NCBI GenBank assembly: GCA_964247515.1
Contig: CAXTVL010000002.1
Span: 1 to 27,752 of the forward strand
Direction: 5' to 3'
Source of the DNA: an uncultured Acetobacteraceae bacterium
GTDB lineage: Bacteria > Pseudomonadota > Alphaproteobacteria > Acetobacterales > Acetobacteraceae
DNA: 27,752 bases
Shown here: piece by piece, positions 10,502-27,752 of the stretch
Numbering within the stretch: position 1 is the stretch's first letter
How the letters are laid out: every line of letters starts with the position of its first letter
Translations under genes and position numbers: made by a program
Notes under the pieces: generated by a model
Database searches by the model: none
What the model was told of the DNA's origin: nothing
Seen by the model: only the letters and a program-made list of their open reading frames with translations

Positions 10502-10999
<498 letters not shown>

Positions 11000-11097: not shown

Positions 11098-11114
11098 ACG
11101 GCATCGTTCTTGCT
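11098..11114 (+). promoter_or_regulatory. Putative sigma54 (-24/-12) promoter for the Tau-like ABC operon
   Basis: ACGGCATCGTTCTTGCT versus YTGGCACGRNNNTTGCW; GG (11100-01) and GC (11112-13) at the correct spacing. Confidence 0.5.
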
Positions 11115-11128
11115 GCGACGCATTGCAA

Positions 11129-12705: not shown

Positions 12706-12736
12706 TTTACGGCAATCCCACGAGGAGGATCGGCTT

Positions 12737-13762
12737 ATGATCGACCCGACCAGCCGACGGACCCTGTTGCGCACCGGCCTGGCGCTCGGCGCCGCACCGC
12801 TGCTGCCCCGACGGGCGCGCGCCGCGACGCCCGGGCGCATCAACATCGCCTTCTTCGTCGGCGCCAGCCCGACCATGATCGCCAAGGGCGATGGCTGGAT
12901 CGAGGACATGACGCACGCGAAGGTGAACTGGGTCGAGGTCGGCTCCGGGGCCGAGATCAACACCGCGGTCGCCGCCGGCAGCGTCGACATCGGCATCGGC
13001 ATCGGCTCCTCGCCCACCGCCGCCGGCATCGCGCAGGAGATCGGCTACGAGGTCGTCGCCATGCTCGACAACATCGGCCCGGCCGAGGAGATGACGGTGC
13101 GCAAGGCCGCCGGCATCCACACGCCAGCCGACTTCAGGGGCAAGCGGATCGCCACGCCGTTCGGCTCCACCTCGCATTTCCGCACCATGGGCTTTCTCAA
13201 GACAAACGGCATGACCCAGCGCGACGTGACGCTGCTCGACATGCGGCCCGACGCCATCGTCGCCGCCTGGCAGCGCGGCGACATCGACGCGGCGTATGTG
13301 TGGAGCCCCGCCAAGTCGAAGGTGCTCGACGCCGGCGGCGAGGTGTTCCGCACCTATGATGCGTTGGAGAAGGCCGGCTACGTGATCGCCGACGTGATGG
13401 TGGCCCGAACCGCCTTCGCCCGCGCCTACCCGGACGCGGTGGTGGCGATCCTGAAGGCGTCCGACCGCTCGCTCGCGATGTGGCACGACAAGCCCGACGA
13501 GGCCGCCGCGATCATCGGCAAGCAGGCCGGCATCAGCACCGAGACGGCGCGCGGCGACCTGCTGCAATACGATTTCGTGCCGCCCCGCGAGCAGCTCAAG
13601 TCGCAATGGCTCGGGCCGCCGGGACAGGCCGGGCATTTCGCCGAGGTGCTGCAAGGCACCGCGAAGTTCCTGGTGGCCCAGCGCAGCATCCGCGCGGCGC
13701 CCTCGCTCGAGGCCTACCGGCGCGCGATCAACACAGCGCCGTTGGCGCAGGCGCTGGCCTGA
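12737..13762 (+). CDS. TauA-like ABC substrate-binding protein with Tat signal (341 aa)
   Basis: GAGGAGG RBS; SRRTLL twin-arginine motif and ARA cleavage; GSVDIGIGIGSSP, GKRIATPFGSTSHF, GDIDAAYVWSPA resemble TauA. Confidence 0.85.
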   Translation: MIDPTSRRTLLRTGLALGAAPLLPRRARAATPGRINIAFFVGASPTMIAKGDGWIEDMTHAKVNWVEVGSGAEINTAVAAGSVDIGIGIGSSPTAAGIAQEIGYEVVAMLDNIGPAEEMTVRKAAGIHTPADFRGKRIATPFGSTSHFRTMGFLKTNGMTQRDVTLLDMRPDAIVAAWQRGDIDAAYVWSPAKSKVLDAGGEVFRTYDALEKAGYVIADVMVARTAFARAYPDAVVAILKASDRSLAMWHDKPDEAAAIIGKQAGISTETARGDLLQYDFVPPREQLKSQWLGPPGQAGHFAEVLQGTAKFLVAQRSIRAAPSLEAYRRAINTAPLAQALA

Positions 13763-13763
13763 C

Positions 13764-14567
13764 ATGCCCGACGACCGCGCCGGCGTCGCGGCGGACGCGG
13801 CGCTGGTCCGGTTCGATGGGCTGGGCGTGGTCTACGACGCCGGGGCCGAGCAGGTGGTGGCGCTGTCCGGCGCCTCGCTGGAGTTCGCTGCCGGGGACTT
13901 CGTCTGCCTGGTCGGGCCGTCCGGCTGCGGCAAGACGACGTTGCTGCAAACCCTGGCAGGGTTCCTCGTGCCGACCCAGGGCTCGGTCACGGTCGAGCGC
14001 CGGCCCGTGACTGGGCCAGGGGCCGACCGTGGCGTGGTGTTCCAGCAGCCGGCATTGTTCCCCTGGCTCAGCGTCGCGGCCAACGCCGGCTTCGGCCCGA
14101 TGGTGCGCGGGCAGGGCCGTGCCGCGCGGGCCGAGATCGTCGAGCGCTATCTGCGCATGGTCGGACTGTGGGAGTTCCGCGACCGCTACCCGTACCAGCT
14201 CTCGGGCGGGATGCAGCAGCGCCTCGCGATCGTGCGCGCGTTGGCAAACGGGCCGAAGATCCTGCTGATGGACGAGCCGTTCGGCGCGCTCGACGCGCTG
14301 ACCCGCGAGAAGATGCAGGAGGAGCTGCACCTGATCTGGCGCCGCACCGGGATGACCGTGCTGTTCATCACCCACAGCGTCGAGGAGGCGGTCTATCTCG
14401 GCACCGAGGTGGTGGTGATGTCGCCGCGTCCCGGTCGCATCATCGAGCGGATCGCGGCGCCGTTCGCGCGGCGCGGCGGCGAGCGCGACAGCCGGGCCAT
14501 CAAGTCGCTGCCCGAGTTCGTCGCCATGCGCGAACAGGTGCTGTCGCTGATCTGGCAAAACGGGTAA
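13764..14567 (+). CDS. ABC ATP-binding protein, TauB/SsuB family (267 aa)
   Basis: Walker A GPSGCGKTT, VVFQQPALFPWL, YPYQLSGGMQQR, LLMDEPFGALD, ITHSVEEA. Confidence 0.95.
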   Translation: MPDDRAGVAADAALVRFDGLGVVYDAGAEQVVALSGASLEFAAGDFVCLVGPSGCGKTTLLQTLAGFLVPTQGSVTVERRPVTGPGADRGVVFQQPALFPWLSVAANAGFGPMVRGQGRAARAEIVERYLRMVGLWEFRDRYPYQLSGGMQQRLAIVRALANGPKILLMDEPFGALDALTREKMQEELHLIWRRTGMTVLFITHSVEEAVYLGTEVVVMSPRPGRIIERIAAPFARRGGERDSRAIKSLPEFVAMREQVLSLIWQNG

Positions 14568-14595
14568 TCGCGGGGGGCAAGCGGAGCGCCGCGAC

Positions 14596-15927
14596 GTGAC
14601 TGTACAATTGACGACACAACAAGCCGGCGTCGATCGCGCGGCATTGCGCGTGGTGCTGCTGTCCAGCCTGGGCGGCGCGCTGGAGTTCTACGACTTCGTC
14701 GTGTTCGGCGTTTTCAACGCCTTCATCTCCGCCGCGTTCTTCCCGTCCGGCGACCCGGTGAGTTCGCAACTCAGCGGGTTGGCGTTGTTCGGGGCCGGCT
14801 ACCTGGCGCGACCGCTGGGCGGCCTGCTGTTCGGCCGGCGTGGCGACCACAGCGGGCGGCGCGGCAGCTTCATGCTCTCGCTGGGCCTGATGTCGGCGGC
14901 GACTGCCGCGATGGGCCTGGTCCCGTCCTACGCCACCGGCGGTGTCGCCTGCACGGCGCTGTTCGTGGCGCTTCGGCTGCTGCAAGGATTTTGCCTCGGC
15001 GGTGAGCTGCCGGGGGCCATCACCTACGCGGTCGAGGTGGTGCCGCGCCGGCACGCGACCCTGGCCTGCGGCGTGGTGTTCGGCTGCGTCAGCAGCGGCG
15101 TGGTGCTGGCGGCCGGGGTCGCGGCGGCGCTGAATGCCACGATGGATGGCCCCAGCCTGGCAGGCTGGGGATGGCGGGTCGCCTTCCTGATCGGAGGCCT
15201 GCTGGGCGGCGTGAGCTGGCTGTTGCGCCGCTCGCTCGAGGAAAGCCCGGCGTTCCTGCGCATGAAGGCGCGACTGGCGGCAGACGCGGCAGCCCGGGGG
15301 CCGCTGCGCGAATTGCTCGCCCGCCATCGCGGCCGGCTGCTGGCCGGCATCGCGGCGACCGGGATCGTGACCACGTTCAATGGATTGCTGTTCGCGCACA
15401 TGGCCGGGTACCTCGCCGGACTGCATTATCCTCGTCCCGCGATCTCCACGAGCCTGACCATCGCCAGTGCCGTGACGTCGGTCACGTTGGTCGCGGCGAC
15501 CTGGGTGGGCGACCGCTGGACGCCGCTCGGCGTCTACCGCATCGGATGCGTCGTGCTCGGCTGCGCCGCTGTCCCGGCCTACAGCGTCCTCGCGGCGCAC
15601 GCGATGCCGCTGTTCCAGGTGTTCTTCCTGATCGGCTTGTCGGCGTGCTTCACCCACGGCACCTTCGCGCTGTTGCTGGCCGATCTGTTCCCGACGCGGA
15701 TACGGTTCTCGGGGGTAGCGCTGTCGATGAACCTCGGTGCCGTGGTGTTCACCGCACTGAGTCCGCTGCTGGCGGCGACCCTGATCGTCTGGACCGGCTG
15801 GCTGGCGGTGCCAGCAGTGCTGATCACAGCGACCGCGCTGCTGGCGTTGGCCGGGACGTTTTATCTCCCGAGATTGAGTGGACAGCTCGACGAGGCCACG
15901 GCCGACGCGTTCGTGGCGGCCGAATAG
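14596..15927 (+). CDS. MFS transporter, metabolite:H+ symporter (ProP/CitA-like) family (443 aa)
   Basis: GGALEFYDF, RPLGGLLFGRRGD..GRR, LRLLQGFCLGGELPGA, WGWRVAFLIGG, LEESPAF, DLFPTRIRFSG; GTG start. Confidence 0.9.
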   Translation: MTVQLTTQQAGVDRAALRVVLLSSLGGALEFYDFVVFGVFNAFISAAFFPSGDPVSSQLSGLALFGAGYLARPLGGLLFGRRGDHSGRRGSFMLSLGLMSAATAAMGLVPSYATGGVACTALFVALRLLQGFCLGGELPGAITYAVEVVPRRHATLACGVVFGCVSSGVVLAAGVAAALNATMDGPSLAGWGWRVAFLIGGLLGGVSWLLRRSLEESPAFLRMKARLAADAAARGPLRELLARHRGRLLAGIAATGIVTTFNGLLFAHMAGYLAGLHYPRPAISTSLTIASAVTSVTLVAATWVGDRWTPLGVYRIGCVVLGCAAVPAYSVLAAHAMPLFQVFFLIGLSACFTHGTFALLLADLFPTRIRFSGVALSMNLGAVVFTALSPLLAATLIVWTGWLAVPAVLITATALLALAGTFYLPRLSGQLDEATADAFVAAE

Positions 15928-15973
15928 CAAACGTTGCTGCGCGGACTGGTCGGCTTTGGTTGGGCAGCTCCGG

Positions 15974-16834
15974 TCAGGCCGGAATCCGGCGGCCGAGAAA
16001 ATCCAGCATGGCCGCGGCGATCTCGCGGCTGTGCGTCTCCAGGGCGAAATGGCTGGTGTCGTAGAACCTGATTTCCGCGTCGGGGATGTCGCGGCGGAAC
16101 GCCTCGGCGCCCGGAGGCAGGAAGTAGATGTCGTTCTTGCCCCACACCGCCAGCAGCGGCGGCTTGTGGGCGCGGAAATATGCCTGCCAAGCCGGGTAGA
16201 GCGCCACGTTGGTGCGATAGTCGTAGATCAGGTCGAGCTGGATCTCATCGGTGCCGGGGCGCTCGAAATAGGCGCTGTCGAGCGTATAGCCGTCCGGCGA
16301 GACGAGTGCGGCGTCGGCACCGGTCAGATATTGGGTGCGGATCGCCTCCGGCGTCAGCGCCGCCCGGCAGGCGTCGCGCGCGGCCGCGGAACCATCCTGC
16401 CAATAGGCTTGGTAGGGTGCCCAAGCGGTGCTGAGGCCCTCCTGGTAGGCGTTGCCGTTCTGGGTGACGATGGCGGTCACGCGCTCGGGGTGGGCCGCGG
16501 CCAGGCGGAAGCCGGTCGGCGCGCCGTAGTCGAATACATAGATGGCATAGCGGCGCAGGCCGAGCGCGTCGGTGAAGCGGTCCAGCGTCTTGGCCAGGTT
16601 GTCGAAAGTGTAGTCGAACTGGCTGCGCGGCGGCGCCACGCTCAGGCCGAAGCCCGGCAGGTCCGGGGCGATCACCCGATAGCGGGCGGCGAGCAGCGGG
16701 ATCAAATCCCGGAACATGTGGCTGGTCGTCGGATAGCCGTGCAGCAGCAGGATCACCGGCGCGTCGGCCGGGCCAGCCTCGCGGTAGAAGACCTCGACGG
16801 GGCCGACGGCCTGGGTCTTGTAGACGGTGCTCAT
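15974..16834 (-). CDS. Alpha/beta fold hydrolase, Asp-nucleophile epoxide hydrolase/haloalkane dehalogenase-like (286 aa)
   Basis: LLLHGYP oxyanion motif, APDLPGFG, nucleophile elbow VFDYGAP, VWGKND, HFALETH. Confidence 0.88.
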   Translation of the reverse strand: MSTVYKTQAVGPVEVFYREAGPADAPVILLLHGYPTTSHMFRDLIPLLAARYRVIAPDLPGFGLSVAPPRSQFDYTFDNLAKTLDRFTDALGLRRYAIYVFDYGAPTGFRLAAAHPERVTAIVTQNGNAYQEGLSTAWAPYQAYWQDGSAAARDACRAALTPEAIRTQYLTGADAALVSPDGYTLDSAYFERPGTDEIQLDLIYDYRTNVALYPAWQAYFRAHKPPLLAVWGKNDIYFLPPGAEAFRRDIPDAEIRFYDTSHFALETHSREIAAAMLDFLGRRIPA

Positions 16835-16976
16835 GGCGGGAAATCCTTCCATTGCGGTCCTGGTTTCGGGTGCGTCAGCGCCGTCAATGCCCGGAGCGAT
16901 GCCAGCAGTTGTGGTCGAGACGAACCTGGCTTGCGCTCGCGGCCGTCAGAATGGACGCCGCATCGGCGACGCAGGG

Positions 16977-17005
16977 TAAATAACTACCGACCGGTCGGAT
17001 GTAAA
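16977..17005 (-). promoter_or_regulatory. sigma70-like promoter (TTTACA-N17-TATTTA) with a palindromic TetR-type operator CCGACCGGTCGG (16987-16998) in its spacer
   Basis: Perfect 12-bp palindrome between -35-like and -10-like hexamers, in the gap between the hydrolase and the divergent TetR. Confidence 0.65.
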
Positions 17006-17062
17006 GTGGCCGCCAAGGCGCCATTTCGGTTCCTGGCAAGCAGCCGAGCGATCGGCTTGGAG

Positions 17063-17632
17063 ATGGGCGTGAAAGTGTCGCAGCGGGACATCGTGGTGGC
17101 GGCGAGGGAGTTGTTCCGAACCGAGGGCTATGCCGGCGCCTCGATGCAGGTCCTGGCCGATCGTGTCGGGTTGCGGAAAGCCAGCCTGTACAGCCGCTTC
17201 CCCGACAAGGAGGCGCTGGTCGGCGAGGTGCTGAAGCTGACCTTCGATGAGATATGCGCCGCCGTGGATGGGGCTGACGCTTGGCCGGCGGCGTATGAGG
17301 CGTTGCTGCGGGCGTTGAGTGACGTGTTGATGGATCGCGGCCGCTGCGTCGCTCTGCACCTCGCCTACGGCACTTCGGCCGATACGCCGCGGGCGTCGGC
17401 AGCGGTGCGTGGGTTCTTCGTCTCCTGCCGCCGCCGTCTTGCCGACACGCTGTCCGCCGTCACCTCGCCCGAGGAAGCCGATCGGATCGCGGTCGACGCC
17501 CTGTCAAGGATCGAGGGCGCCACGCTTTGGCTCGCTATCGACGGCGACCCCACCGCGATGCAACGCGCCCTGGAGCAGTTGCGCGCGGAGGCCGACCGGC
17601 TCCGCGAACACTCCCAGACTCCTCCCCGGTGA
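17063..17632 (+). CDS. TetR/AcrR family transcriptional regulator (189 aa)
   Basis: IVVAARELFRTEGYAGASMQVLADRVGLRKASLYSRFPDKEALV helix-turn-helix; GGAG immediately upstream of ATG. Confidence 0.92.
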   Translation: MGVKVSQRDIVVAARELFRTEGYAGASMQVLADRVGLRKASLYSRFPDKEALVGEVLKLTFDEICAAVDGADAWPAAYEALLRALSDVLMDRGRCVALHLAYGTSADTPRASAAVRGFFVSCRRRLADTLSAVTSPEEADRIAVDALSRIEGATLWLAIDGDPTAMQRALEQLRAEADRLREHSQTPPR

Positions 17633-17643
17633 TCTCCCAAATG

Positions 17644-17666
17644 GTGGCGGGCAGCCGGCCCGCCAC
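17644..17666 (+). terminator. GC-rich hairpin after tetR (no U tract)
   Basis: gtggcgggc-agccg-gcccgccac: perfect 9-bp stem, 5-nt loop, 11 nt after the stop. Confidence 0.4.
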
Positions 17667-17791
17667 GTCGTCACGTCCGGCGGTTTCGCTCACCGACCAG
17701 AAACGTCGCGGTTGTTCCCGGCCTGGCCAGAAAGACGTGTCGCGTTCGTGACCGAGCGCGCGCGACCGGTTGGGTCGGCTAGGATGGCGCG

Positions 17792-19069
17792 ATGCAGCCG
17801 CTCGTCACGCCGCCAGTAGCACCGCCGCCGTCCAGCCTGCTGCGGCGGCTCGGTCCCGGCCTCATCACCGGCGCCGCCGACGACGACCCGAGCGGCATCG
17901 CCACCTACAGTCAGGTCGGCGCGCAGTTCGGCTACGGCCTGGCGTGGACGATGCTGTTCAGCCTGCCGTTCATGATCGTGATCCAGGAGGTCAGCAGCCG
18001 CATCGGCTGCGTCACCGGGCGCGGCATCGCCGACAACCTGCGCCGCCACTACCCGCGCTGGCTGCTGCGCGCGGTCGTGCTGCTGTTGCTGTCGGCCAAC
18101 GTCATCAACCTCGGCGCCGATTTGGGTGCCATGGGGGCGGCGGCGCGGCTGCTGCTGGGCGGCAGTGCCCGGCTCTACACCGTGGCGTTCGGCGTGCTTT
18201 GCGTCTTGGCCGAGATATTCGTCCGCTACGCGACTTACTCCGGATTGCTGAAATGGCTGACAGTCTCGCTGTTCGCCTACGTCGCCGTCGTGTTCGCGGT
18301 TCATGTGCCGTGGAACCGTGCGCTGCTCGCGACCCTCGTGCCTCGCCTTGCGTTCGACCCTGGGCAGGCGACGGCGCTCGTGGCGGTGCTCGGCACCACG
18401 ATCAGCCCGTACCTGTTCTTCTGGCAGTCGTCACTGGAAGTCGAGAACCTGCGTCGCCTCGGCGCCCGCCCGCTGGCCCTGACTCCACGCCTGGCGCCGC
18501 CGCAATTCGCCCGCATCCGCACCGACACCGTGTTCGGCATGGCGGTGTCGAACCTGGTCGCGATCTTCATCATCTACGCCACCGCGGCGACGCTGCACGC
18601 CAGCGGGGTCACGGACATCCAGACCTCGTCGCAGGCGGCGGAGGCGCTCCGCCCGATCGCCGGCGACTTCACCTTCGCCGTGTTCGCGCTTGGAATCGTC
18701 GGCACTGGGCTGCTTGCGGTCCCGGTGCTGGCCGGCTCCGGCGCCTATGCGCTGTCGGAGGCGTTCCGCTGGCGCGAGGGCCTCGACCGGCGGCTGCTGC
18801 AGGCGCGGTGGTTCTACGCCACCATCGCCGTCTCCACCCTGGCCGGTGTCGCGCTGAACTTCACCGCCCTCGACCCAGTGAAGGCGCTGTATTGGAGTGC
18901 CGTGCTCAACGGGCTGCTGGCGGCGCCGGTGATGGCGTCGATCATGCTCGTGGCCGGCAACGGGCGCATCATGGGACGGCTCACGCTGCCGCTGCCGATG
19001 CTGGTCGGTGGCTGGCTTGCGACCTTCGTCATGCTGGCCGCCAGCATCGGCTTCTTCGCGCTGCCGTGA
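17792..19069 (+). CDS. Nramp-related divalent metal transporter (425 aa)
   Basis: LGPGLITGAADDDPSGIATYSQVGA (TM1), ANVINLGADL, GTTISPYLFFWQS (TM6), multiple TM helices. Confidence 0.87.
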   Translation: MQPLVTPPVAPPPSSLLRRLGPGLITGAADDDPSGIATYSQVGAQFGYGLAWTMLFSLPFMIVIQEVSSRIGCVTGRGIADNLRRHYPRWLLRAVVLLLLSANVINLGADLGAMGAAARLLLGGSARLYTVAFGVLCVLAEIFVRYATYSGLLKWLTVSLFAYVAVVFAVHVPWNRALLATLVPRLAFDPGQATALVAVLGTTISPYLFFWQSSLEVENLRRLGARPLALTPRLAPPQFARIRTDTVFGMAVSNLVAIFIIYATAATLHASGVTDIQTSSQAAEALRPIAGDFTFAVFALGIVGTGLLAVPVLAGSGAYALSEAFRWREGLDRRLLQARWFYATIAVSTLAGVALNFTALDPVKALYWSAVLNGLLAAPVMASIMLVAGNGRIMGRLTLPLPMLVGGWLATFVMLAASIGFFALP

Positions 19070-19081: not shown

Positions 19082-19924
19082 TCATCCTTTCACCGCGCCT
19101 GCCGAGAGGCCGGCGACCAAGTAGCGCTGCAACACCGCGAAAAACAAACAGGCGGGGATCAGGCCCAGCACGGCGGCCGCCATCATCTGCCCCCAATCGA
19201 CCGCGAACTTGCCGATGAAGGTGAGCAGGCCGACGGCGAACGTCTTGCTGCCCTCGTCGTTGATGAGCATGAGCGCGAACAGCAGCTCGCTCCAGGCGGC
19301 GGTGAACACGAAGCCGACCGTGGCGCCCATGCCGGGCAGCGTCAGCGGCAGCACGACGCGCACGATCGCCTGCGGGCGGGTGCAGCCGTCGATGGTGGCG
19401 GCCTCCTCCAGCTCGCGCGGGATGCCGTCGAGGAAGGACTGCATCAGGAAGCTCGCGAACGGCACGTTGAAGGCGGTGTAGACGATGACCAGGCCCAGGA
19501 GCGAGTTGGTCAGATGCAATGTCGCCATGATGCGGTAGAGCGGCGGGATCACCATCACCAGCGGGAAGGTCTGCGTCAGCAGCAGCAGCAAGGCGACCGT
19601 CGCCTTGCCGCGGAACGCCAGGCGCGACAGGGCGTAGCCGGCGGCCGAGGCGATGGCGGTCGCGGCCAGCGCGGTCGCCACCGAGACGGTGATCGAGTTG
19701 ACGAAGTAGCGCGGGAAGTCGCTCTCGCGCAGCACCCGCGCGTAGTTGGCCAGCGTGGTGACCGAGGGCCACAGCGGCGTGCCCTCGGTGTAGAGCAACT
19801 GTCCGGGTGTCACGCTGATCTTGACCGTCCAGAACAGCGGGAACAGCGCGAACACCACGTAGGCCCCGAGTGCCGTCACGAAGCCGGCCTGCGCCAGCGG
19901 GCGCGTGCCTCGTCCCGCGATCAT
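19082..19924 (-). CDS. Carbohydrate ABC (CUT1) permease, MalG-like (280 aa)
   Basis: FPRYFVNSI, AAGYALSRL, EAA loop IPRELEEAATIDGC, AAWSELLFAL, QRYLVAGLSAGAVKG. Confidence 0.92.
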   Translation of the reverse strand: MIAGRGTRPLAQAGFVTALGAYVVFALFPLFWTVKISVTPGQLLYTEGTPLWPSVTTLANYARVLRESDFPRYFVNSITVSVATALAATAIASAAGYALSRLAFRGKATVALLLLLTQTFPLVMVIPPLYRIMATLHLTNSLLGLVIVYTAFNVPFASFLMQSFLDGIPRELEEAATIDGCTRPQAIVRVVLPLTLPGMGATVGFVFTAAWSELLFALMLINDEGSKTFAVGLLTFIGKFAVDWGQMMAAAVLGLIPACLFFAVLQRYLVAGLSAGAVKG

Positions 19925-20784
19925 GCGTAGCGCCGCCGCAGCCGGATCAGCACCAGCGCGTAGGCGAGCAGCAGCGCCAAAAGCAGGATCGACACGGCGC
20001 TGGCATAGCCCTTGTCGAGCGAGGTGAACGCTGTGACGTAGACGTAGGTGGCGACGGTGTTGGTCGATCCCGCCGGGCCGCCCCGGGTCATGACGAAGAT
20101 CAGGTCGGCGAAGGTCGCGATCCAGATGGTGCGCAGCATCACCGTGATCGCGATGGTGGGGGTGAGGAAGGGCAGGGTGATCTGCGCGAAGCGGTCCCAG
20201 CCGCTCGCCCCGTCGATGGCGGCCGCCTCGTACAGCTCCGCCGGGATGGTCTTCAGCGCCGCGAGGATGGTGATGGCGAAGAACGGCACGCCGAACCAGA
20301 CATTGGCGGTGATCGGCCCCCACATCGCGGTCGCGGGGTCGGACAGGATGCTGGTCTGCGGCGTGCCGATGCCCAGTGCGGCCATCCAACGCGGCAGCGG
20401 CCCGATCACCGGGTTGAGCAGCCAGGCCCAGGTCAGCCCGGCCAGGAACGTCGGCACCGCCCAGGGCAGGAACACCAGCGCCTGCACAACGGGGCGGCCG
20501 AGGAACTGGCGGTTGAGCAGCATCGCGAGGCCCAAGCCAAGGCCGAACTGGAGCACGAGGCTGGCCGCGGTCCACCAAAGCGTGTTGCGCAGCGCCTCGC
20601 CCAGCACCGGGTCGTGCAGCATCCGCGCGTACTGGCCGAGCCCCACATAGTCCGAGCGGAACGCGCCGAAGTGCCGCAGCGAGAATCCCACGCCCACGAT
20701 CAGCGGCACCAGCAGGACGCAGCCGAGCAGCACCAGCGCCGGGGCAAGGTACAGCCAGGGCTCGACGACCCGCCGCAACGCCAC
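19921..20784 (-). CDS. Carbohydrate ABC (CUT1) permease, MalF-like (287 aa)
   Basis: GTG start 14 nt after the SBP stop; PWLYLAPAL, VGLGQYARML, FLPWAVP, EAA loop IPAELYEAAAIDGAS, MTRGGPAGST; ATGA overlap with the next permease. Confidence 0.9.
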   Translation of the reverse strand: MALRRVVEPWLYLAPALVLLGCVLLVPLIVGVGFSLRHFGAFRSDYVGLGQYARMLHDPVLGEALRNTLWWTAASLVLQFGLGLGLAMLLNRQFLGRPVVQALVFLPWAVPTFLAGLTWAWLLNPVIGPLPRWMAALGIGTPQTSILSDPATAMWGPITANVWFGVPFFAITILAALKTIPAELYEAAAIDGASGWDRFAQITLPFLTPTIAITVMLRTIWIATFADLIFVMTRGGPAGSTNTVATYVYVTAFTSLDKGYASAVSILLLALLLAYALVLIRLRRRYA

Positions 20785-20798
20785 GCGGCGGGCGGCCG

Positions 20799-22067
20799 CT
20801 ACTTCGAGGCCTTCTTCAGGTAGGCCTGCTGCTCGCCGCCGAGATAGGACGCCCATTCGTCCGCGACCGACTGCGCCGTGCGCTGCCCGAGCAGCGCCTG
20901 CTGGTAGGTCTTGATGGCGATGTTGTCGTAGAAGTTGCCGAAGTTCTCCAGATGCGACGGCACCGAGACCAGGACGTAGTGCTTGGGGTCGTTCAGCTCG
21001 GCGAACCAGCCGGCGAACTTGTCGCTGGCGAAGTACGGGTCGTTCGTCGCGGTCTTGTAGATCGGCAGCGTCCCCACGAACTTCGACCAGGCAAGGTTGT
21101 TGTCGGGCGCTCCGAGGGCCGCGATCAGCTTCCAGGACGCCTCCTTGTCGTGCGAGTTGGCGAACATCGCCCAGCCGCTGTAGCCGAGCGAGGGGAACGC
21201 CCGCCCGCCCGGTCCGGTCGGCAGTGGCGTGACACCGAAATCGGACGCCGGCATCTTGTCGGCGATGCCGAGCAGGGCGTCGGGGTCCTGGTCGAGCAGG
21301 GCGCAGGTGCCGGAGTAGAAGCCGGACACCACCTCGTTGAACGCCCAGCCGACGCTGTCCTTGGGCGCGTAGCCGTGGCGATAGATGTCGACCAGCGTCT
21401 GCAAGCCCTTGACCGAACCCGGCTCGGCGAAGGTCGATGTGCCATCGGCGTTGAAGTAGCCGGGCTTGTCGTCCATCGTGTTCATGAAGATCTGCACGCC
21501 GCCGGTGCCGCCGGGGCCGCCGCGCAGGCAGTAGCCGTACTTGCCGGGCGTGGCGCTGATCTTGGCGCTGTCGGCCACGAACTCGTCCATCGTCTTGGGC
21601 GGGGCGGCGATCCCGGCCTGAGCGAACAGCTTCTTGTTCCAGAACATCGCGCGCACGTAGTAGCCGTACGGCAGCATGTACATCTTGCCGTCGACCACCG
21701 AGCCGAGCTGGGTCGCGCGCTCGCCGAGATCCTTCGCGTTCGGCCATTTCGCGATCCACGGGCCGAGGTCCTGAAGCTGCGCGTTGTTGGCGTAGAGGCC
21801 GAGCCAGCGCTCCGGCATCTCGACCACGTCGGGCGTGTCGCCGGCTTGGACCATGTTGAGGAACTTCTCGAACGCCTGGCCCCAGGGCAGCGACGTCACC
21901 TCGACATGGGTGCCGGGATTGGCCTGCTCGAAGGCGGCCACTTGCTTCTTCAGCAGCTCGGTGCGCGGCGGGCTGGTGATGACCTCGACCAGCTTCAGCG
22001 TGGTGTCGGCGACCGCAGGCGTTGCGAGCGTCGCCGCCACGACGGCGGCCATCCAGGTCCGGATCAT
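20799..22067 (-). CDS. Carbohydrate ABC (CUT1) substrate-binding protein (422 aa)
   Basis: GGAGAG RBS; Sec signal MIRTWMAAVVAATLATPAVA; FEQANPG, GDTPDVVEM, YMLPYGYYVRAMFWNKKLF, PPKTMDEF. Confidence 0.9.
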   Translation of the reverse strand: MIRTWMAAVVAATLATPAVADTTLKLVEVITSPPRTELLKKQVAAFEQANPGTHVEVTSLPWGQAFEKFLNMVQAGDTPDVVEMPERWLGLYANNAQLQDLGPWIAKWPNAKDLGERATQLGSVVDGKMYMLPYGYYVRAMFWNKKLFAQAGIAAPPKTMDEFVADSAKISATPGKYGYCLRGGPGGTGGVQIFMNTMDDKPGYFNADGTSTFAEPGSVKGLQTLVDIYRHGYAPKDSVGWAFNEVVSGFYSGTCALLDQDPDALLGIADKMPASDFGVTPLPTGPGGRAFPSLGYSGWAMFANSHDKEASWKLIAALGAPDNNLAWSKFVGTLPIYKTATNDPYFASDKFAGWFAELNDPKHYVLVSVPSHLENFGNFYDNIAIKTYQQALLGQRTAQSVADEWASYLGGEQQAYLKKASK

Positions 22068-22080
22068 GTGTTCTCTCCCA

Positions 22081-23262
22081 TTAGGTCGTGGCAACGGCGA
22101 GGGCTCGTTCGAGATCGTTCCACAGGCTTTCGACATCCTCCAGCCCGACGTTGAGCCGGACCAGGCGCTCGGTCACGCCGAATTCGGACAGCGAGTTGAC
22201 GCCCGGGGTCTGCCGCAGCGTCGCCATGGCCGGCACCACCAGGCTCTCGTGCCCACCCCAGCTGATGCCGATGCGGAACACCTGCAGCGCGTCGACGAAG
22301 CGCGGGACGTCCACCGCCTCGTCCGCCTCGAACGAGAACAGGCCGGTGGTGCCCGCGAGCGTGGCGCGGCCGGGATGGTTCGCGAAGGCCGGGTGGTGCA
22401 CGCGGGTCACGCGAGGATCCGCGCGCAGCCGCTCGGCCAGCGTCAGTCCCGCGCGTTCGTGCTGCAACAGGCGCAGCGGCAGCGTGCGCAGGCCGCGCAG
22501 CAGGAGCCATGCCTCGAACGGCGACAGCTTGGCGCCCAGCACCGGGTAGGCGCGGGTGTTGACCTGCGCCATGTGCGCCGCCGAGCCGGACAGCACGCCG
22601 GCCACCACGTCCGAGTGCCCGCCGATGTATTTCGACGCCGAGTGCAGCACGAGGTCGACGCCGTGGGCGATCGGCTGCTGGAACAGCGGGGTCGCCCAGG
22701 AATTGTCGATGACGCTGACAATGCCCTGCGCCCGCGCCGCCGCCGCCAGGCGCGGCAGCTCCTGCAGCTCGAACACCATCGAAGTCGGGCTCTCCAGGTA
22801 GAGCATGGTCGCACCGGGTAGGGCCGCGATCACTGCCTCGGCGTCGCTGCCGTCGACGTACTGCACGGTGATGCCGAGGTTCGGCAGCAGCCGCTCGAAC
22901 AGCCGGAACGCGTCGCCGTACAGGTGGCGGACGGCGACGATGCGCTGGCCGGCGCCCACGAAGCCCAGCACCGCGGCGCTGATCGCCGCCATGCCGGAGG
23001 AGAACGCCCGCGACGCCTCGGCTCCCTCCAGTGCCGCGATGCGGCTCTCGAACTCCATCACCGTGGGGTTGTCGCCCCGGCTGTAGATCGGGCGGCGGAC
23101 GGTGCCCGCGAAGGCGTCGGCCATGTCGGCGTAGCTGCGGAAGGTGAACAGCGAGGTCTGGTAGATCGGCGGCACCACCGGGTCCTGCGGCAGGTCGCCG
23201 TCATGCGCCAGGAGCGTCGCGGCGCGGGCGAGGATGGCGGCGCGGTCGGGATGAGGTTCCAC
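22081..23262 (-). CDS. PLP-dependent trans-sulfuration family enzyme (cystathionine beta-lyase/gamma-synthase/Met gamma-lyase-like), about 393 aa
   Basis: VVPPIYQTSLF, YSRGDNPT, FSSGMAAI, YLESPTS, IDNSWATP, Schiff-base motif HSASKYIGGHSD, RGLRTLPLR, SWGGHESL, RLNVGLED. GTG start uncertain. Confidence 0.88.
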   Translation of the reverse strand: MEPHPDRAAILARAATLLAHDGDLPQDPVVPPIYQTSLFTFRSYADMADAFAGTVRRPIYSRGDNPTVMEFESRIAALEGAEASRAFSSGMAAISAAVLGFVGAGQRIVAVRHLYGDAFRLFERLLPNLGITVQYVDGSDAEAVIAALPGATMLYLESPTSMVFELQELPRLAAAARAQGIVSVIDNSWATPLFQQPIAHGVDLVLHSASKYIGGHSDVVAGVLSGSAAHMAQVNTRAYPVLGAKLSPFEAWLLLRGLRTLPLRLLQHERAGLTLAERLRADPRVTRVHHPAFANHPGRATLAGTTGLFSFEADEAVDVPRFVDALQVFRIGISWGGHESLVVPAMATLRQTPGVNSLSEFGVTERLVRLNVGLEDVESLWNDLERALAVATT

Positions 23263-23294
23263 GCCGCCTGGGTGGCACGGGGCGGCGAGGGCCG

Positions 23295-24437
23295 TCAATT
23301 CAGCCGGTCGAGCAAGGCGTCCATCATGCGGTCGCAACGCTCGAGCTGGTCGCGGGTGACGAACTCGTCGGCCTTGTGGCCCTGCTCCATCGACCCCGGC
23401 CCGCACACCACGCAGGGCACCCCGAGGCGCCGCTGGAACAGCCCGGCCTCGGTGCCGAACGCCACCTTGCCCAACGGTCCCGGCCCGGACAGCGCACGCG
23501 CGAGAGACACCACGGGGGCGTCGAGCGGTGTGTCGAGGCCAGGATAGTCGTTGGTCACTTCGATGGCGATGTCGGCCTGCGGAAAGCGCCGCCGCGCCGC
23601 CCGCACCAGTTCGGCGGCGTCGGCCTCGACGTCGCGCAGCACGGCACCGGCGTCGTCGGCGCCGATGTTGCGGATCTCGAACGCCACGTCGCAGCGGTCG
23701 GGCACGATGTTGGGCACCAGGCCGCCGGCGATATGGGCCACGTGCAACGTGGTGTACGGCACGTCGTACGCGGCGTCCCGCGAGACACCCTCGGCCAGCA
23801 GCGCCTGCCGTCGCCGCAGTCGGCCCACCAGGTCGGTCGCGAGATGGATGGCGTTCAGTGCCCGTGGCGCCAGTGCCGTGTGCGCCGCGGTGCCGCAGCA
23901 GGTGGCGCGCGCTGCGATCTTGCCCTTGTGCCCGGTCATCACCGCCATGCCGGTCGGCTCGCCCACGATGCAGAACTCGGGGCGCAGGCCGGACGCCGCC
24001 AGCCGGTCGAGCATGTCGCGCACGCCGAGGCAGCCGAGTTCCTCGTCGTACGAGAACGCCAGGTGCAGCGGCCGCCGGAGTCCGCGCCCGGCTGCCAGCG
24101 TGGCGGCGCGCAACGCGCAGGCCAGGAAGCCCTTCATGTCGGCCGTCCCGCGCCCGAGCAGCCTGCCGTCACGCTCGGTCAGGCGGAACGGGTCGCTGGT
24201 CCAGGCCTGGCCGTCGGGCGGCACCACGTCGGTGTGGCCGGACAGCACCACGCCGCCCGGGCCGTCGCCCACCGTCGCGAACAGGTTCGCCTTGCGCGCG
24301 TCGGGACTGCCGAACAGCCGCGCGCCGATGCCGTGCTCGGCCAGCAGGTCGCGCGCGAAGCCGATCAGCTCGAGGTTGCTCTCACGGCTCACGGTCGGGA
24401 ACGCGATCAGCCGATCCAGCAGGGCCACGCTGTCCAC
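23295..24437 (-). CDS. M20A metallo-amidohydrolase, acetylornithine deacetylase (ArgE)-like (380 aa)
   Basis: LIAFPTVSRESN, LSGHTDVVP, GRGTADMKG, YDEELG, IVGEPT, GHKG, FGTEAGLF, GHKADE; GAGGAG RBS inside the regulator's last codons. Confidence 0.9.
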   Translation of the reverse strand: MDSVALLDRLIAFPTVSRESNLELIGFARDLLAEHGIGARLFGSPDARKANLFATVGDGPGGVVLSGHTDVVPPDGQAWTSDPFRLTERDGRLLGRGTADMKGFLACALRAATLAAGRGLRRPLHLAFSYDEELGCLGVRDMLDRLAASGLRPEFCIVGEPTGMAVMTGHKGKIAARATCCGTAAHTALAPRALNAIHLATDLVGRLRRRQALLAEGVSRDAAYDVPYTTLHVAHIAGGLVPNIVPDRCDVAFEIRNIGADDAGAVLRDVEADAAELVRAARRRFPQADIAIEVTNDYPGLDTPLDAPVVSLARALSGPGPLGKVAFGTEAGLFQRRLGVPCVVCGPGSMEQGHKADEFVTRDQLERCDRMMDALLDRLN

Positions 24438-24442
24438 GCCCG

Positions 24443-25438
24443 CTACTCCTCGCCTGCCACCAGCCGGGCGGCGTCGCCGTCGATCACCAGGCCGCGCACC
24501 ACGCCGGTGCGCAGCAGCGCCCGCACCGCCGCCACCTTCTGCAGGCCGCCAGCCACCAGCACCACGTCGCGCTGACGCAGCCGCTCGAACTCCAGCGCCA
24601 GCGTGCGGTGGGCGAGTTCATGGTCGATCTCGGCCCCGTTCGCGTCGAACAGCCGGCCCAGCGAGTCGGCGACCGCACCTCGGGCGCGCACGCTGCGCAG
24701 TTCGGCCGGCGACAACATGCCCTGCACGCGCAGGAACGCGGTCTCGGCGAGCTCGCCCACGCTGACCAGATAGAGGTCGGCCGAGCGTGCCAGGTCCAAG
24801 GCCTCGGCCACGGTGCGCTGCGACATCAGTACCGCGCGGTCGGCCACGCTGTCGGCGATGAACGGCACCGGCAGGAAGTGGCCCTCGCCGCCGGTGCGCG
24901 CCGCCAGCGCCTGCACCACCTCGAACGGGTTGGAGGCCGAGTTGCGGGTGAGCGAGCCCATCAGCGAGACGAACCGCGCCTGCGGGTTCTGCGCGCCCGA
25001 GAGATGCAGCGCCATCTGCTCCAACGTGCGGCCCCAGCTGACACCCACGGTGATCGGGCGTCCGGTCGCCAGCTTGCCCTTGAGGAAATTGGCGGCCGCC
25101 GCCCCGACACCGCGCCGGGCGATCGCCTCCTGCGCCGCGGCCAGCGTCGGATCGCCGCTGGCGTCGAAGCCCATGGCGGGCGTCGCCAGGCAGAAATCCA
25201 AGCCGTGGCGCCGGGCGATGGCATCCTCGACGCCGAGGTCGCGGATCGCCTCGTGGTTGATGGTGACGCTGACCAGGCCCCGCTCGCGCGCCTCGGCCAG
25301 CAGGCGGACCACGCGGCTGCGGTGCAGGCCGAGCCGCCCGGCCACCTCCTCCTGGGTCAGTCCGCCGACATGGTACAGCCAGGCGGCGCGCACCATGATC
25401 GCCGCGTCCGGCTCGTGCGCGAGATTGAGCGTCAGCAT
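24443..25438 (-). CDS. Sugar-binding transcriptional regulator, SorC/DeoR/LsrR family (331 aa)
   Basis: RAAWLYHVGGLTQEEVAGRLGLHRSRVVRLLAEARERGLV HTH; GVSWGRTL, AVRALLRTG..GLVIDGDAA effector-domain motifs. Confidence 0.92.
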   Translation of the reverse strand: MLTLNLAHEPDAAIMVRAAWLYHVGGLTQEEVAGRLGLHRSRVVRLLAEARERGLVSVTINHEAIRDLGVEDAIARRHGLDFCLATPAMGFDASGDPTLAAAQEAIARRGVGAAAANFLKGKLATGRPITVGVSWGRTLEQMALHLSGAQNPQARFVSLMGSLTRNSASNPFEVVQALAARTGGEGHFLPVPFIADSVADRAVLMSQRTVAEALDLARSADLYLVSVGELAETAFLRVQGMLSPAELRSVRARGAVADSLGRLFDANGAEIDHELAHRTLALEFERLRQRDVVLVAGGLQKVAAVRALLRTGVVRGLVIDGDAARLVAGEE

Positions 25439-25546
25439 GGCGCGACGATACCGCTTGACTTCCGCGATGCCTAACGACGAATGTTCGTGCTGGAGCAATT
25501 GTCGCGGCGCACGTCAGATGTGTCGGAGCGTGAGGAAATGGTCGCA

Positions 25547-26566
25547 ATGACGCTGCCCAACACGCCCTTGGCGGAGCTCTATCGCACCATGCGGCGCATC
25601 CGCAGCTTCGAGGAGCGGGTGGCGGAACTGTATGCCCGTGGGCTCTCCGCCGGCTCGATGCTGCACCTGTCGATTGGCGAGGAGGGGGCGGCGGCCGGGG
25701 TCGCCGCCGCGATGCGGCCGCAGGACAGCTTCACCACGCACCATCGCGGCCACGGCATCTTCCTGGCGCGTGGCGCCGACCCCGCTCGGATGATGGCCGA
25801 GATCGGCGGCAAGGAGAGCGGCTACTGCCGCGGCAAGGGCGGCTCCATGCACATCGCCGACATGGCGCTGGGCCATCTCGGCGCCAACGCCATCGTGGGC
25901 GGCGGCATCCCGCACGTCGTCGGCGCCGGGCTCAGCTACAAGGCCAAGAAGACCGACGCCATCTCGGTCGCCTTCTTCGGCGACGGCGCCATGCAGCAGG
26001 GCGTGCTGTACGAGAGCATGAACATGGCCGCCCTGTGGGACCTGCCGGTGCTGTTCGTCTGCATCAACAACCAGTACGGCATGGGTACCCGGATCGACCT
26101 CGCCACCCGCTCGGTCGAGTTCGACCGCAGGGCCGAGGCGTTCGGCCTCGCCGCCACCATGGTCGACGGCGAGGACGTGGAGGCGGTGTTCCACGCGGCA
26201 CAGGCGCTGGCCGACGGCGCGCGGGCCGGCAAGCCCGGCTTCATGGCGATCTCCTGCTTCCGCTTCTTCGGCCACGGCCGCATGGACAAGAGTCCGTACC
26301 GCACCGCCGAGGAGGAGGCGTTGGGCCGCAAGCGCGACCCGATCGCGCGCGCCCGCACCGCGTTGCTGGAACGCGGCCAGATGGGCGAGGCGGCGCTCGA
26401 CCGGCTCGACGCCGAAGTGGCGCAGGAGATGGACGCCACCATCGACTTCACCGCCGCGGCGAGCGATCCGGCCCCCGCCAGCATGTTCCGCGACGTCTAC
26501 GGGCCGGGCGAGCCGGAGCCGGAGCCTTTGAGCCACCGGCTCGACCGCATCCTGGCGCGGGCCTGA
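25547..26566 (+). CDS. TPP-dependent dehydrogenase E1 alpha subunit, AcoA/PdhA-like (339 aa; alternative start 25538)
   Basis: MRRIRSFEE, HRGHG, CRGKGGSMHIAD, GANAIVGGG, TPP motif GDGA...NN (FFGDGAMQQG...CINNQYG). Confidence 0.92.
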   Translation: MTLPNTPLAELYRTMRRIRSFEERVAELYARGLSAGSMLHLSIGEEGAAAGVAAAMRPQDSFTTHHRGHGIFLARGADPARMMAEIGGKESGYCRGKGGSMHIADMALGHLGANAIVGGGIPHVVGAGLSYKAKKTDAISVAFFGDGAMQQGVLYESMNMAALWDLPVLFVCINNQYGMGTRIDLATRSVEFDRRAEAFGLAATMVDGEDVEAVFHAAQALADGARAGKPGFMAISCFRFFGHGRMDKSPYRTAEEEALGRKRDPIARARTALLERGQMGEAALDRLDAEVAQEMDATIDFTAAASDPAPASMFRDVYGPGEPEPEPLSHRLDRILARA

Positions 26567-27549
26567 TGGCCGCCACCGAGATCACCTATCGCGACGCGCT
26601 GCGCCAGGCGTTGCAGGACGCCATGCGGGCCGACCCCGACATCGTGGTGATCGGCGAGGAGGTCGGCGTCTATGGCGGCGCCTACGGCGTCACCAAGGAT
26701 TTGATCGCCGAGTTCGGCGCGGGCAGGCTGATCGACACGCCGATCAGCGAGCCGGGCCTGGTGGGCGTCGCCGTGGGTGCCGCGATGACCGGGCTGCGGC
26801 CGGTGGCGGAGCTGATGTACGTCGATTTCCTGGGCTTGGTCATGGACCAGTTGGCCAACCAGGCGGCCAAGATCCGCTACATGTTCGGCGGCCAGATCGG
26901 CGTGCCGATGGTGCTGCGCACGCAAGGCGGCACTGGCCGGTCGGCCGGGGCGCAGCACTCGCAAAGCCTGGAGGGCTGGATCATGCACACGCCCGGCCTG
27001 CGCCTCGCGATGCCGGCGACGGCGCTGGACGCCTACCATTTGCTGCGCCACAGCCTGACGCTGCCCGACCCCGTCGTGTTCATCGAGCACAAGGCATTGT
27101 ACACGCGTCGCCAGATGGCCGATCTCGCGGCACCGCCGGTGCCGTGGGGGCAGGCGGTGGTGCGCCGCGCCGGCGGGCACGCGACGCTCGTGACCTATTC
27201 GCGCATGGTCCACGTCGCCCTCGCCGCCGCCGAGACGCTGAGCGGCGAGGGGATCGCGCTCGAGGTCATCGACCTGCGCACGCTGAACCCGCTGGACATG
27301 GCGTCCGTGGCGGGCTCGGTGCAGCGGACCGGGCGCGCGGTGGTGGTGAGCGAGGGGCCACTCACCGGCGGTGTCGCGGCCGAGCTTGCCGCGCGCATCT
27401 CGGAGGAATGCTTCGACTACCTGGAGGATCCGGTGCTGCGCCTGGCCGGGGAGGATATCCCGATCCCGGTCTCCCCCGCGCTGGAGGGAGCGAGCATCCC
27501 GACCGCCGAGCTGATCGCAGCCACCGTGCGGCGGATGCTGCGGCCATGA
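26566..27549 (+). CDS. TPP-dependent dehydrogenase E1 beta subunit, AcoB/PdhB-like (327 aa)
   Basis: TGATG overlap; GEEVGVYGGAYGVTKDL, IDTPISE, GLRPVAELM, AQHSQSLE, EVIDLRTLNPLD, SVQRTGR. Confidence 0.93.
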   Translation: MAATEITYRDALRQALQDAMRADPDIVVIGEEVGVYGGAYGVTKDLIAEFGAGRLIDTPISEPGLVGVAVGAAMTGLRPVAELMYVDFLGLVMDQLANQAAKIRYMFGGQIGVPMVLRTQGGTGRSAGAQHSQSLEGWIMHTPGLRLAMPATALDAYHLLRHSLTLPDPVVFIEHKALYTRRQMADLAAPPVPWGQAVVRRAGGHATLVTYSRMVHVALAAAETLSGEGIALEVIDLRTLNPLDMASVAGSVQRTGRAVVVSEGPLTGGVAAELAARISEECFDYLEDPVLRLAGEDIPIPVSPALEGASIPTAELIAATVRRMLRP

Positions 27550-27752
27550 TCGTCGAGCTCACCCTGCCCCGGTTGGGCGAGACCATGGAGACCGGGCGGG
27601 TCGCGAGTTGGCTGCGCAGCCCCGGCGAGAGCTTCAAGCGCGGCGAGACGCTGCTGGAGATCGAGACCGACAAGACCATCGTCGAGATGCCGGCGCTGGC
27701 CGACGGCACGCTGGTCGAGATCGTGGCCGAGGCCGGCCGCGACGCCGATGTG
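27546..27752 (+). CDS. Lipoyl-domain protein (E2, AcoC/PdhC-like), N-terminal fragment running off the right edge; absent from the ORF track
   Basis: ATGA overlap; MIVELTLPRLGETMETGRVASWLRSPGESFKRGETLLEIETDKTIVEMPALADGTLVEIV with lipoyl-Lys motif ETDK. Confidence 0.9.
   Translation, partial: MIVELTLPRLGETMETGRVASWLRSPGESFKRGETLLEIETDKTIVEMPALADGTLVEIVAEAGRDADV

Follow-up and report, generated by a model that had tools for sequence, protein, structure and literature searches.

An importer operon with a VbsL-like enzyme beside an AcoABC-type operon in an uncultured Acetobacteraceae bacterium: a likely mosaic of separately inherited units

Gene content of the locus

The window considered here is the whole stretch of 27,752 nucleotides analyzed from an uncultured Acetobacteraceae bacterium (GCA_964247515.1, contig CAXTVL010000002.1). 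It has a GC content of about 70% and covers nearly all of contig C2 of an assembly (G000) that comprises 584 contigs and is 76% complete. Positions 19082 to 27752 hold nine genes. Six of them read leftwards and encode a SorC/DeoR-LsrR-type regulator, an M20 deacylase, a pyridoxal phosphate (PLP)-dependent enzyme of the Cys/Met fold, and the solute-binding protein (SBP) and two permeases of a CUT1-type ATP-binding cassette (ABC) importer; the other three read rightwards and encode E1alpha, E1beta and the lipoyl domain of an AcoABC-like, thiamine pyrophosphate (TPP)-dependent complex (Table 1). These nine genes, their order, the gaps of 5–32 bp and the divergent control region of 108 bp had been described in an initial annotation, which combined all of them into one pathway. 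Pfam, NCBIfam and a reading of the junctions confirmed the description. The comparison with, in total, more than 100 related loci points elsewhere when it comes to the pathway: the region is likely to be a mosaic of three separately inherited units, which are adjacent only in a small sublineage of the Acetobacteraceae. The units are referred to below as module A (importer and PLP enzyme), module B (regulator and Aco genes) and module C (M20 deacylase).

Gene calls were checked by Pfam, NCBIfam equivalog cut-offs and codon-position GC, the latter backing the called frames with GC3 values of 0.86–0.93. The closest relative of the window is an uncultured Acetobacteraceae metagenome-assembled genome (MAG), G005, whose proteins are 90–97% identical to those of the window, and the two nearest relatives beyond this pair are the loci L053 and L054, from whose 339-aa orthologues the start of E1alpha was placed. 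In the leftward array, 5 nt separate the SorC stop from the GTG of the M20 gene, 32 nt the M20 stop from the GTG of the PLP gene, 13 nt the PLP stop from the ATG of the SBP gene (with the ribosome-binding site GGGAGAG), and 14 nt the SBP stop from the GTG of permease 1, while the two permease genes overlap in ATGA. A scan for promoters and terminators between 18900 and 25700 gave nothing, and hence no terminator-like site inside this array. The single match of an Rfam scan of the window was a tRNA. Among public sequencing runs, none with more than 10% of the window's words and no RNA run was found.

Table 1. Positions of the features in the window, with the nine genes under study listed before the remaining ones.
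Feature	Module	Position	Strand	Assignment
Permease 2, MalG/GlcU-like, CUT1	A	19082..19921	-	PF00528 (BPD_transp_1)
Permease 1, UgpA/MalF-like, CUT1	A	19921..20784	-	PF00528; start GTG at 20784
Periplasmic solute-binding protein, SBP_bac_1/8	A	20799..22067	-	PF01547, PF13416, signal peptide
VbsL-like Cys/Met-fold PLP enzyme	A	22081..23262	-	PF01053, E 4e-102, residues 18-388
Accessory ArgE-family M20 deacylase	C	23295..24437	-	PF01546, PF07687
SorC/DeoR-LsrR-type regulator	B	24443..25438	-	PF04198 and helix-turn-helix
Divergent control region, 108 nt		25439..25546	.	sorC to E1alpha
TPP-dependent E1alpha, AcoA-like	B	~25547..26566	+	PF00676
E1beta, AcoB-like	B	26563..27549	+	PF02779, PF02780; start overlaps E1alpha stop
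N-terminal lipoyl domain, AcoC-type E2	B	27546..27752, off window end	+	PF00364; best NCBIfam PRK14875 (AcoC)
tRNA		531-601	-	Rfam
TolC-like OEP gene		1156-3009		
Valyl-tRNA synthetase		3283-6408		
Xanthine-dehydrogenase-family molybdoenzyme subunits		7262-10581	-	
NMT1-type ABC system		10487-14567		
MFS transporter		14551-15927		
Alpha/beta hydrolase		15974-16945	-	
NRAMP transporter		17792-19069		convergent on permease 2

Module A and its distribution

The window contributes the SBP and both permeases to the CUT1 system of module A, and an ATPase gene is not among its genes; MalK-like genes are located on contigs C299 and C43 of the same assembly. For permease 2, the top NCBIfam models were GlcU and MalG, both under their cut-offs. 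A close ligand-bound relative of the SBP was not found among the solved structures (best match in the PDB 3uor, E 6e-27), and in a protein atlas the SBP was met with generic "sugar ABC" names only.

The order PLP enzyme, SBP, permease, permease, all on the same strand, recurs in about 70 loci from about 20 genera at identities of 48–94%. In orthologous loci the SBP (52–90% identity) always directly follows the PLP gene, and orthologues of permease 2 (60–97% identity) come after permease 1 in about 70 loci. The usual companions elsewhere are a GntR/FCD regulator and a MalK ATPase, the ATPase being present in most orthologous module A operons of other taxa. The four genes stand, for instance, after a GntR/FCD gene in Mesorhizobium and Acidisoma (62–75% identity), with a MalK-type ATPase gene next in Mesorhizobium. 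An orthologue was present in four out of 400 sampled genomes of the class, each time in the same GntR operon. A phylum-wide search with the NCBIfam model NF004627 was positive for 18 of 401 genomes; GntR, PLP enzyme, SBP, two permeases and MalK occurred together in seven out of eight loci from this search, down to identities of 48% for the PLP enzyme and 52% for the SBP. In the species collection, which yielded 80 named loci, the SBP gene lies immediately behind the PLP gene in 53, and the importer is missing in 25. The genera represented include Mesorhizobium, Phyllobacterium, Aminobacter, Chelatococcus, Inquilinus and Taklimakanibacter, and further named loci belong to Dongia, Geminicoccaceae, Lichenihabitans, a Steroidobacteraceae MAG and an Acidobacteriota MAG. 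In the genus of the window, both the GntR regulator and the ATPase of module A are lost.

Recurrent co-occurrence of the genes in other genomes, which the initial annotation had named as support for its reading, was thus seen for the importer and the PLP enzyme (about 70 loci, as given above) and not for M20, SorC and AcoAB. Among the 80 named loci, high-identity M20, SorC and E1 genes are found only at the G005 locus. Clustering of the flanking genes of 66 ABC-linked loci revealed no recurrent partner beyond generic ABC parts and, in two lineages, Aco genes. Taken by itself, module A is a real uptake operon, and a so far uncharacterised one.

Two observations concern single loci of this set. 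In G001, a genome of the same genus, an IlvD/Edd-family dehydratase gene lies upstream of the PLP gene (L011:12998-14023); it is apparently truncated or frameshifted, with no more than the C-terminal domain and part of the N-terminal one lying in a single frame. Locus L093 (NZ_VCCH02000009.1) is titled Mycobacterium sp. KBS0706, and it is near-identical to the Inquilinus loci and groups with them in the tree described below; the record probably carries a wrong organism label or stems from a contaminated assembly.

Module B: the SorC regulator and the Aco operon

The third Aco gene, of which the window holds only the lipoyl domain, is a full-length AcoC-type E2 gene in G005, with lipoyl, E3-binding and alpha/beta-hydrolase domains. 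The missing C-terminal half of the window's own E2 is located on contig C336 of G000, where the next genes encode a CUT2 binding protein (Peripla_BP_4) and a double ABC ATPase. With E1alpha and E1beta, all components that define an AcoABC system are thereby present. In L053 and L054 the complete operon consists of E1alpha, E1beta, AcoC, a CUT2 binding protein, an ATPase, a permease and a short-chain dehydrogenase. As the Aco arm is equipped with a sugar-type importer of its own, it does not need the importer encoded leftwards.

E1alpha is 76–98% identical in G005, G007 (of the window's genus) and G019 (of another genus), and SorC orthologues with 65–92% identity are divergent from E1alpha-E1beta-AcoC in these three genomes as well as in L053 and L054. 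This divergence holds with or without M20 and module A beside it. Within the control region, positions 25475-25504 form an imperfect inverted repeat that resembles an operator (CGACGAATGT, 10 nt, GCAATTGTCG). This repeat is kept in each of the six sorC/aco intergenic regions that were aligned, among them those from genomes without adjacent M20 and module A. It has one exact copy in the window, and near the M20 or the PLP gene no second operator-like motif beyond chance was found. Because the divergent layout and the repeat are conserved in six loci, SorC is assigned to the Aco operon and not, as had been assumed initially, to the region as a whole. The protein matches the family model PF04198, and its equivalog scores stay under the cut-offs (DeoR 146 vs. 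420, LsrR 95 vs. 486).

When compared with AcoABC of Pseudomonas putida and Cupriavidus necator, module B matches in its E1alpha, E1beta and E2 domains and, in close relatives, in the short-chain dehydrogenase at the operon end. It differs in having a SorC-type regulator instead of the sigma-54 activator AcoR, in lacking an E3 gene within the cluster, and in including a CUT2 sugar-type importer, to which sugar kinases and isomerases are added in other genera. The combination of a SorC-family regulator with a CUT2 importer resembles the enterobacterial lsr system for autoinducer 2, in which LsrR and LsrK are divergent from LsrACDB-FG. An FGGY kinase, as in lsr, also belongs to module B of G019, whereas the lineage of the window has no kinase there, and LsrF and LsrG are replaced by the TPP/lipoyl cleavage system.

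Gene content around module B varies between genomes. In G019 (L031:8862-10433) the FGGY kinase gene stands between sorC and E1alpha, and a short-chain dehydrogenase gene is present in addition; in G007 (L032:16878-19800) genes for a Gfo/Idh/MocA oxidoreductase, a xylose-isomerase-like TIM barrel protein and a ROK kinase are found. The kinase, isomerase-type and oxidoreductase genes of these operons indicate that module B is a carbohydrate or polyol locus.

Module C: the M20 deacylase

The M20 protein scores above the ArgE cut-offs (NF005710 492 vs. 412; TIGR01892 372 vs. 297.7), and its best match in the PDB is ArgE of Escherichia coli (7rsf, 180 bits). Orthologues are present in four of ten genomes of the genus, in which two other paralogues of about 42% identity are widespread; two paralogues are found in the genome of the window as well. 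ArgJ is present in G001, G003, G005 and G010, and was not found in the window's own assembly, which is only 76% complete. The gene lies 5 nt behind sorC in the window, G005, L053 and L054.

Elsewhere, the neighbors of the orthologue are different ones. It stands with DUF1028 and PIN genes in G007 (L045:9053-9811), has HpaB and DUF1028 genes nearby in G008 (L046:4379-5083), and follows two D-2-hydroxyacid dehydrogenase genes in L055 (7037-8970). The neighborhood with DUF1028 and 2-hydroxyacid dehydrogenase genes hints at an older, different association. Given the distribution over only part of the genus, the presence of ArgJ in the genus and the varying gene partners, the M20 protein is an accessory ArgE-family deacylase and not the arginine-pathway enzyme of the organism. 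It differs from ArgE proper, whose two models it passes, in exactly this accessory position. The initial annotation had argued against simple roles of the M20 and PLP proteins in arginine and methionine biosynthesis; that neither is the housekeeping ArgE or MetC is supported by these data and by the occurrence of other Cys/Met paralogues in the genome.

Separate inheritance and a recent junction

Of the loci examined, only those of the window, G005, L053 and L054 combine the PLP/ABC unit with M20, SorC and this particular Aco operon. In G001 and G007, module A has no M20, SorC or Aco gene adjacent to it. A SorC orthologue was not found in G001, and in G007 module A is located on contig C2 and SorC/Aco on contig C11, with the M20 gene at a distance of 118 kb from SorC/Aco. 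In G019, module B is present and the PLP gene is represented by distant paralogues only.

The history of the junction between the M20 and PLP genes can be read from L053 and L054. Both loci match the window from the Aco operon to the M20 stop (M20 83–84% identical to that of the window) and, from the start of the PLP gene onwards, as far as the convergent NRAMP gene. The interval that separates these two matching stretches measures 3.8 kb, as opposed to 32 nt in the window and G005, and it follows from this difference that the short junction is recent and lineage-specific. The interval is a variable spot, its contents being unlike in the two loci. In L053 (10140-13939) it comprises a GH5 cellulase-like gene, two small Inhibitor_I36-like genes and a DUF1036 gene, all on the opposite strand; in L054 (10142-13921) an Acyl_transf_3 gene and an opposite-strand gene for a GAF-PAS hybrid histidine kinase. 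With such an interval upstream, the PLP/ABC unit of L053 and L054 must, as judged from the gene arrangement, have a promoter of its own. A recent loss of 3.8 kb has made three units resemble one operon.

The PLP enzyme

The PLP protein matches PF01053 over its full length. Its PLP lysine stands in an S-x-S-K-Y motif, the conserved residues Tyr, Asp and Arg are present, and in an alignment of 12 relatives Y60, R62, Y115, D186, K211 and R369 are invariant. It scores above the cut-off of NF004627 (PRK05968, "hypothetical protein"; 619 vs. 508 bits), while all lyase and synthase equivalogs stay under theirs (TIGR01328 309 vs. 549.7; TIGR01324 261 vs. 365.9; NF005810 259 vs. 594). Family membership and PLP-binding residues are shared with cystathionine beta- and gamma-lyases, cystathionine gamma-synthase and methionine gamma-lyase, for which roles the genome of the window has separate paralogues. 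Compared with methionine gamma-lyase, Cys116 is replaced by Asp and the Lys240-Asp241 pair is absent. The Asp in question (D117) is invariant within the clade of the enzyme, together with K245 and W335, and all three are also found in VbsL of the vicibactin cluster of Rhizobium leguminosarum, which likewise exceeds the NF004627 cut-off.

The enzyme is 58% identical, over 372 residues, to the vbsL product of Rhizobium croatiense. The nearest structure in the PDB is that of an archaeal L-Ala/L-Glu racemase (9iz5, 262 bits), followed by methionine gamma-lyase (241 bits). The motifs DN(S/T)W and SWG(G/S)HE are common to the window enzyme and 9iz5 and are not present in methionine gamma-lyase. The racemase is, however, only roughly 40% identical, comes from another organism and context, and its model NF041088 is matched with 367 against a cut-off of 629. 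In a maximum-likelihood tree, the 25 sequences from vbs contexts group together as a single clade (SH-aLRT 93), which is nested in a polytomy of ABC-linked clades. The internal branches measure 0.03–0.3, as compared with 2–4 substitutions per site for the branches that carry the genome's own Cys/Met paralogues.

In Rhizobium rhizogenes and R. croatiense, the PLP gene is the third gene of its operon, after those for an IucB-type acyltransferase and a MATE exporter (Pfam); these operons are divergent from a nonribosomal peptide synthetase (NRPS) gene of C-A-T-TE architecture and adjoin FhuD/FecCD uptake genes. This order corresponds to vbsA-vbsD-vbsL in the vicibactin cluster, the genes of which have been given in the order vbsLDAGSO (PMC6421345). 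Loci of Methylocapsa and Azorhizobium show a like layout of open reading frames by size and strand, without Pfam annotation. Unlike VbsL with its biosynthetic surroundings, the window enzyme is encoded outside any vicibactin-type NRPS cluster and is flanked by the M20 gene and a CUT1 uptake operon. VbsL has been described as an acyl-hydroxyornithine epimerase (PMC12971057, citing Heemstra 2009).

Genomes of the Rhizobium leguminosarum complex contain vbsL of the vicibactin cluster together with an ABC-linked paralogue accompanied by GntR and MalK genes (G762:C1:323097-324281 and G762:C32:25274-26437, loci L057 and L056; also G478 and G653). Both roles therefore coexist in one cell.

The NF004627 assignment, the identity to VbsL, the position in the tree, a racemase as the nearest structure and the family motifs jointly suggest an amino-acid epimerase or racemase, a function which we consider moderately probable for the PLP enzyme, with elimination as the main alternative. 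The initial annotation had seen a lyase in this protein, which is not what its characterised relatives would suggest, these being the epimerase VbsL and the racemase.

Two further candidate roles were followed up. For a D-glucosaminate or amino-sugar-acid ammonia-lyase, a literature search returned only the unrelated DgaE, and such compounds are retained merely as possible substrates. The canavanine gamma-lyase cluster contains an amino-acid-type ABC importer and homoserine/aspartate enzymes, none of which is encoded at the window locus, and this candidate was rejected.

A proposed mechanism for the three modules

Taken separately, the modules could work as follows. The SBP and permeases of module A would take up a polar compound whose alpha-amino acid group is free, borrowing a MalK-type ATPase encoded elsewhere in the genome. 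The PLP enzyme would then invert this compound at the alpha-carbon, resulting in a product that can be used by ordinary enzymes; cleavage appears less likely. Where present, the GntR/FCD regulator may sense the compound or its product. Regarding the substrate, the kinship with VbsL points to side chains that derive from ornithine or are otherwise bulky and polar; a D-amino acid and a compound of the hydroxamate type are among the candidates. For module B, which extends from 24443 to the contig end and beyond, a sugar or polyol would be imported by the CUT2 system and oxidized by the short-chain dehydrogenase, and the TPP/lipoyl system may cleave a derived acyloin or ketose to acyl-CoA and an aldehyde, all of this under the control of SorC. 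Module C adds an accessory deacylase of the ArgE family, the gene of which has come to lie behind sorC.

A mosaic or one pathway

That the region is a mosaic is the reading which we regard as likely, and it draws on gene identities, synteny, independent distribution, the 3.8-kb difference and family placement, all of which are directly observed. Several points weigh against it. In Inquilinus, an AcoABC-type cluster, the E1 of which is about 41% identical to that of the window, lies divergently upstream of the GntR-PLP-SBP-permease operon (Inquilinus sp. CA228, L095:3347-7658 and 13315-14325; also L093, L097 and L104); its AcoC carries lipoyl and abhydrolase domains, and an OmpA-family gene precedes it. 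Two independent Aco adjacencies in about 20 lineages exceed what we would expect by chance; the cluster is, however, absent at the Inquilinus limosus SA128 locus L101. In the same genus, a gene for an FmdA/AmdA-family amidase takes the place of MalK after the permeases. Moreover, as the genes of the leftward array nearly abut and a terminator-like site was not found among them, read-through and hence a regulatory link would be expected in the lineage of the window and G005, so that all six leftward genes are probably now co-transcribed from the sorC promoter. To judge from the gene order, this predicted coupling is probably an accident of position. Finally, the PLP enzyme retains all residues that are needed for elimination, which speaks against the epimerase part of the proposal.

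Some of these points would favor the pathway originally envisaged, in which all nine genes serve the use of one sugar-amino acid conjugate by CUT1 import, M20 deacylation, beta/gamma elimination and oxidation of the product by E1/E2, under SorC control. The tight packing without an internal terminator, the shared divergent control region, the conservation of the whole arrangement in G005 and the different AcoABC cluster next to module A in Inquilinus are what such a pathway would lead one to expect. Yet the modules are found apart in G001, G007, G019 and about 65 other loci, and in L053 and L054 the M20 gene is split from the PLP gene by 3.8 kb of unrelated genes, some of them on the opposite strand. 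A CUT2 importer and a dehydrogenase belong to the Aco arm itself, the substrates of AcoC-type E2 systems are acyloins and not 2-oxoacids, and the characterised relatives of the PLP enzyme are an epimerase and a racemase. The lack of co-occurrence elsewhere is what the initial annotation itself had named as speaking against a single pathway under SorC, and we consider this pathway highly improbable. A narrower association, limited to the lineage of the window and G005, would have the M20 protein, the VbsL-like enzyme and the importer work together, with the Aco arm unrelated, for example in the salvage of N2-acetylated ornithine-hydroxamates from vicibactin-type siderophores by import, N2-deacetylation and epimerization. 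The units of vicibactin are reportedly N2-acetylated D-ornithine derivatives. The M20 protein belongs to the family of N2-acetylornithine deacetylases and is dispensable for arginine synthesis, its gene lies 32 nt from that of the PLP enzyme, this enzyme is 58% identical to the N5-acyl-N5-hydroxy-ornithine epimerase VbsL, and the FmdA/AmdA gene at the end of module A in Inquilinus might indicate that the deacylase is a swappable partner, an idea also found in the initial annotation. On the other hand, module A occurs without an M20 orthologue in G001 and in all other genera, the M20 gene of L053 and L054 goes with sorC and stands apart from the PLP gene, and its orthologues elsewhere sit with 2-hydroxyacid dehydrogenase or DUF1028 genes. 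Ferric siderophores usually enter by FhuD-type systems and not by CUT1 importers, and the Rhizobium vbs locus has Peripla_BP_2/FecCD genes for that purpose; M20 enzymes of the ArgE family are known for L-substrates. Cooperation of the three is thus improbable in our view. The same holds, as a long shot, for the more general proposal that module A serves the uptake and stereo-inversion of an ornithine-hydroxamate-type or other polar D/L amino acid of siderophore, fungal or lichen origin, with M20, and possibly Aco, recruited in the lineage of the window; if true, it would represent a previously unknown salvage pathway for siderophore monomers or D-amino-acid conjugates.

The remaining alternative leaves the mosaic untouched and concerns the chemistry of module A only, whose enzyme would be a true eliminating lyase that splits a C-S, C-O or C-N bond of an imported amino-acid conjugate, resulting in a leaving group, pyruvate or 2-oxobutyrate, and ammonia. 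It is compatible with the PF01053 membership and with the retention of Tyr115, Asp186, Lys211 and Arg369, and a one-enzyme catabolic operon would be easier to explain if its product were a central metabolite. In addition, canavanine gamma-lyase is a precedent for the use of this fold in catabolic operons that include ABC importers (PMC9533460), although that cluster has an amino-acid-type importer, and not a CUT1 system, together with other enzymes. What makes a lyase rather unlikely is that the characterised proteins related at up to about 58% identity are limited to an epimerase, with a racemase as the closest match of known structure, that the vbs-context sequences nest at short distances among the ABC-linked clades, and that the NCBIfam lyase and synthase equivalogs are all matched far under their cut-offs.

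Under the mosaic reading, the region illustrates that tight gene packing can mislead when functional unity is deduced from it. As regards annotation, the many genes named "cystathionine beta-lyase/gamma-synthase" inside GntR/CUT1 operons encode VbsL-like enzymes and should be excluded from reconstructions of sulfur-amino-acid metabolism, which applies to Mesorhizobium, Phyllobacterium, Aminobacter, Inquilinus, Acetobacteraceae and others. The one-enzyme uptake operon is kept across about 20 genera of bacteria that live with plants, in soil or with lichens, and knowledge of what it imports would establish a new trait of nutrient use or salvage.

Remaining genes of the window

The part of the window from 1 to 19069 looks unrelated to the genes of modules A to C. 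It contains the tRNA mentioned above, genes for a TolC-like protein and valyl-tRNA synthetase, molybdoenzyme and NMT1-type ABC genes, and, towards module A, genes for an MFS transporter, an alpha/beta hydrolase and the NRAMP transporter that converges on permease 2 (Table 1).

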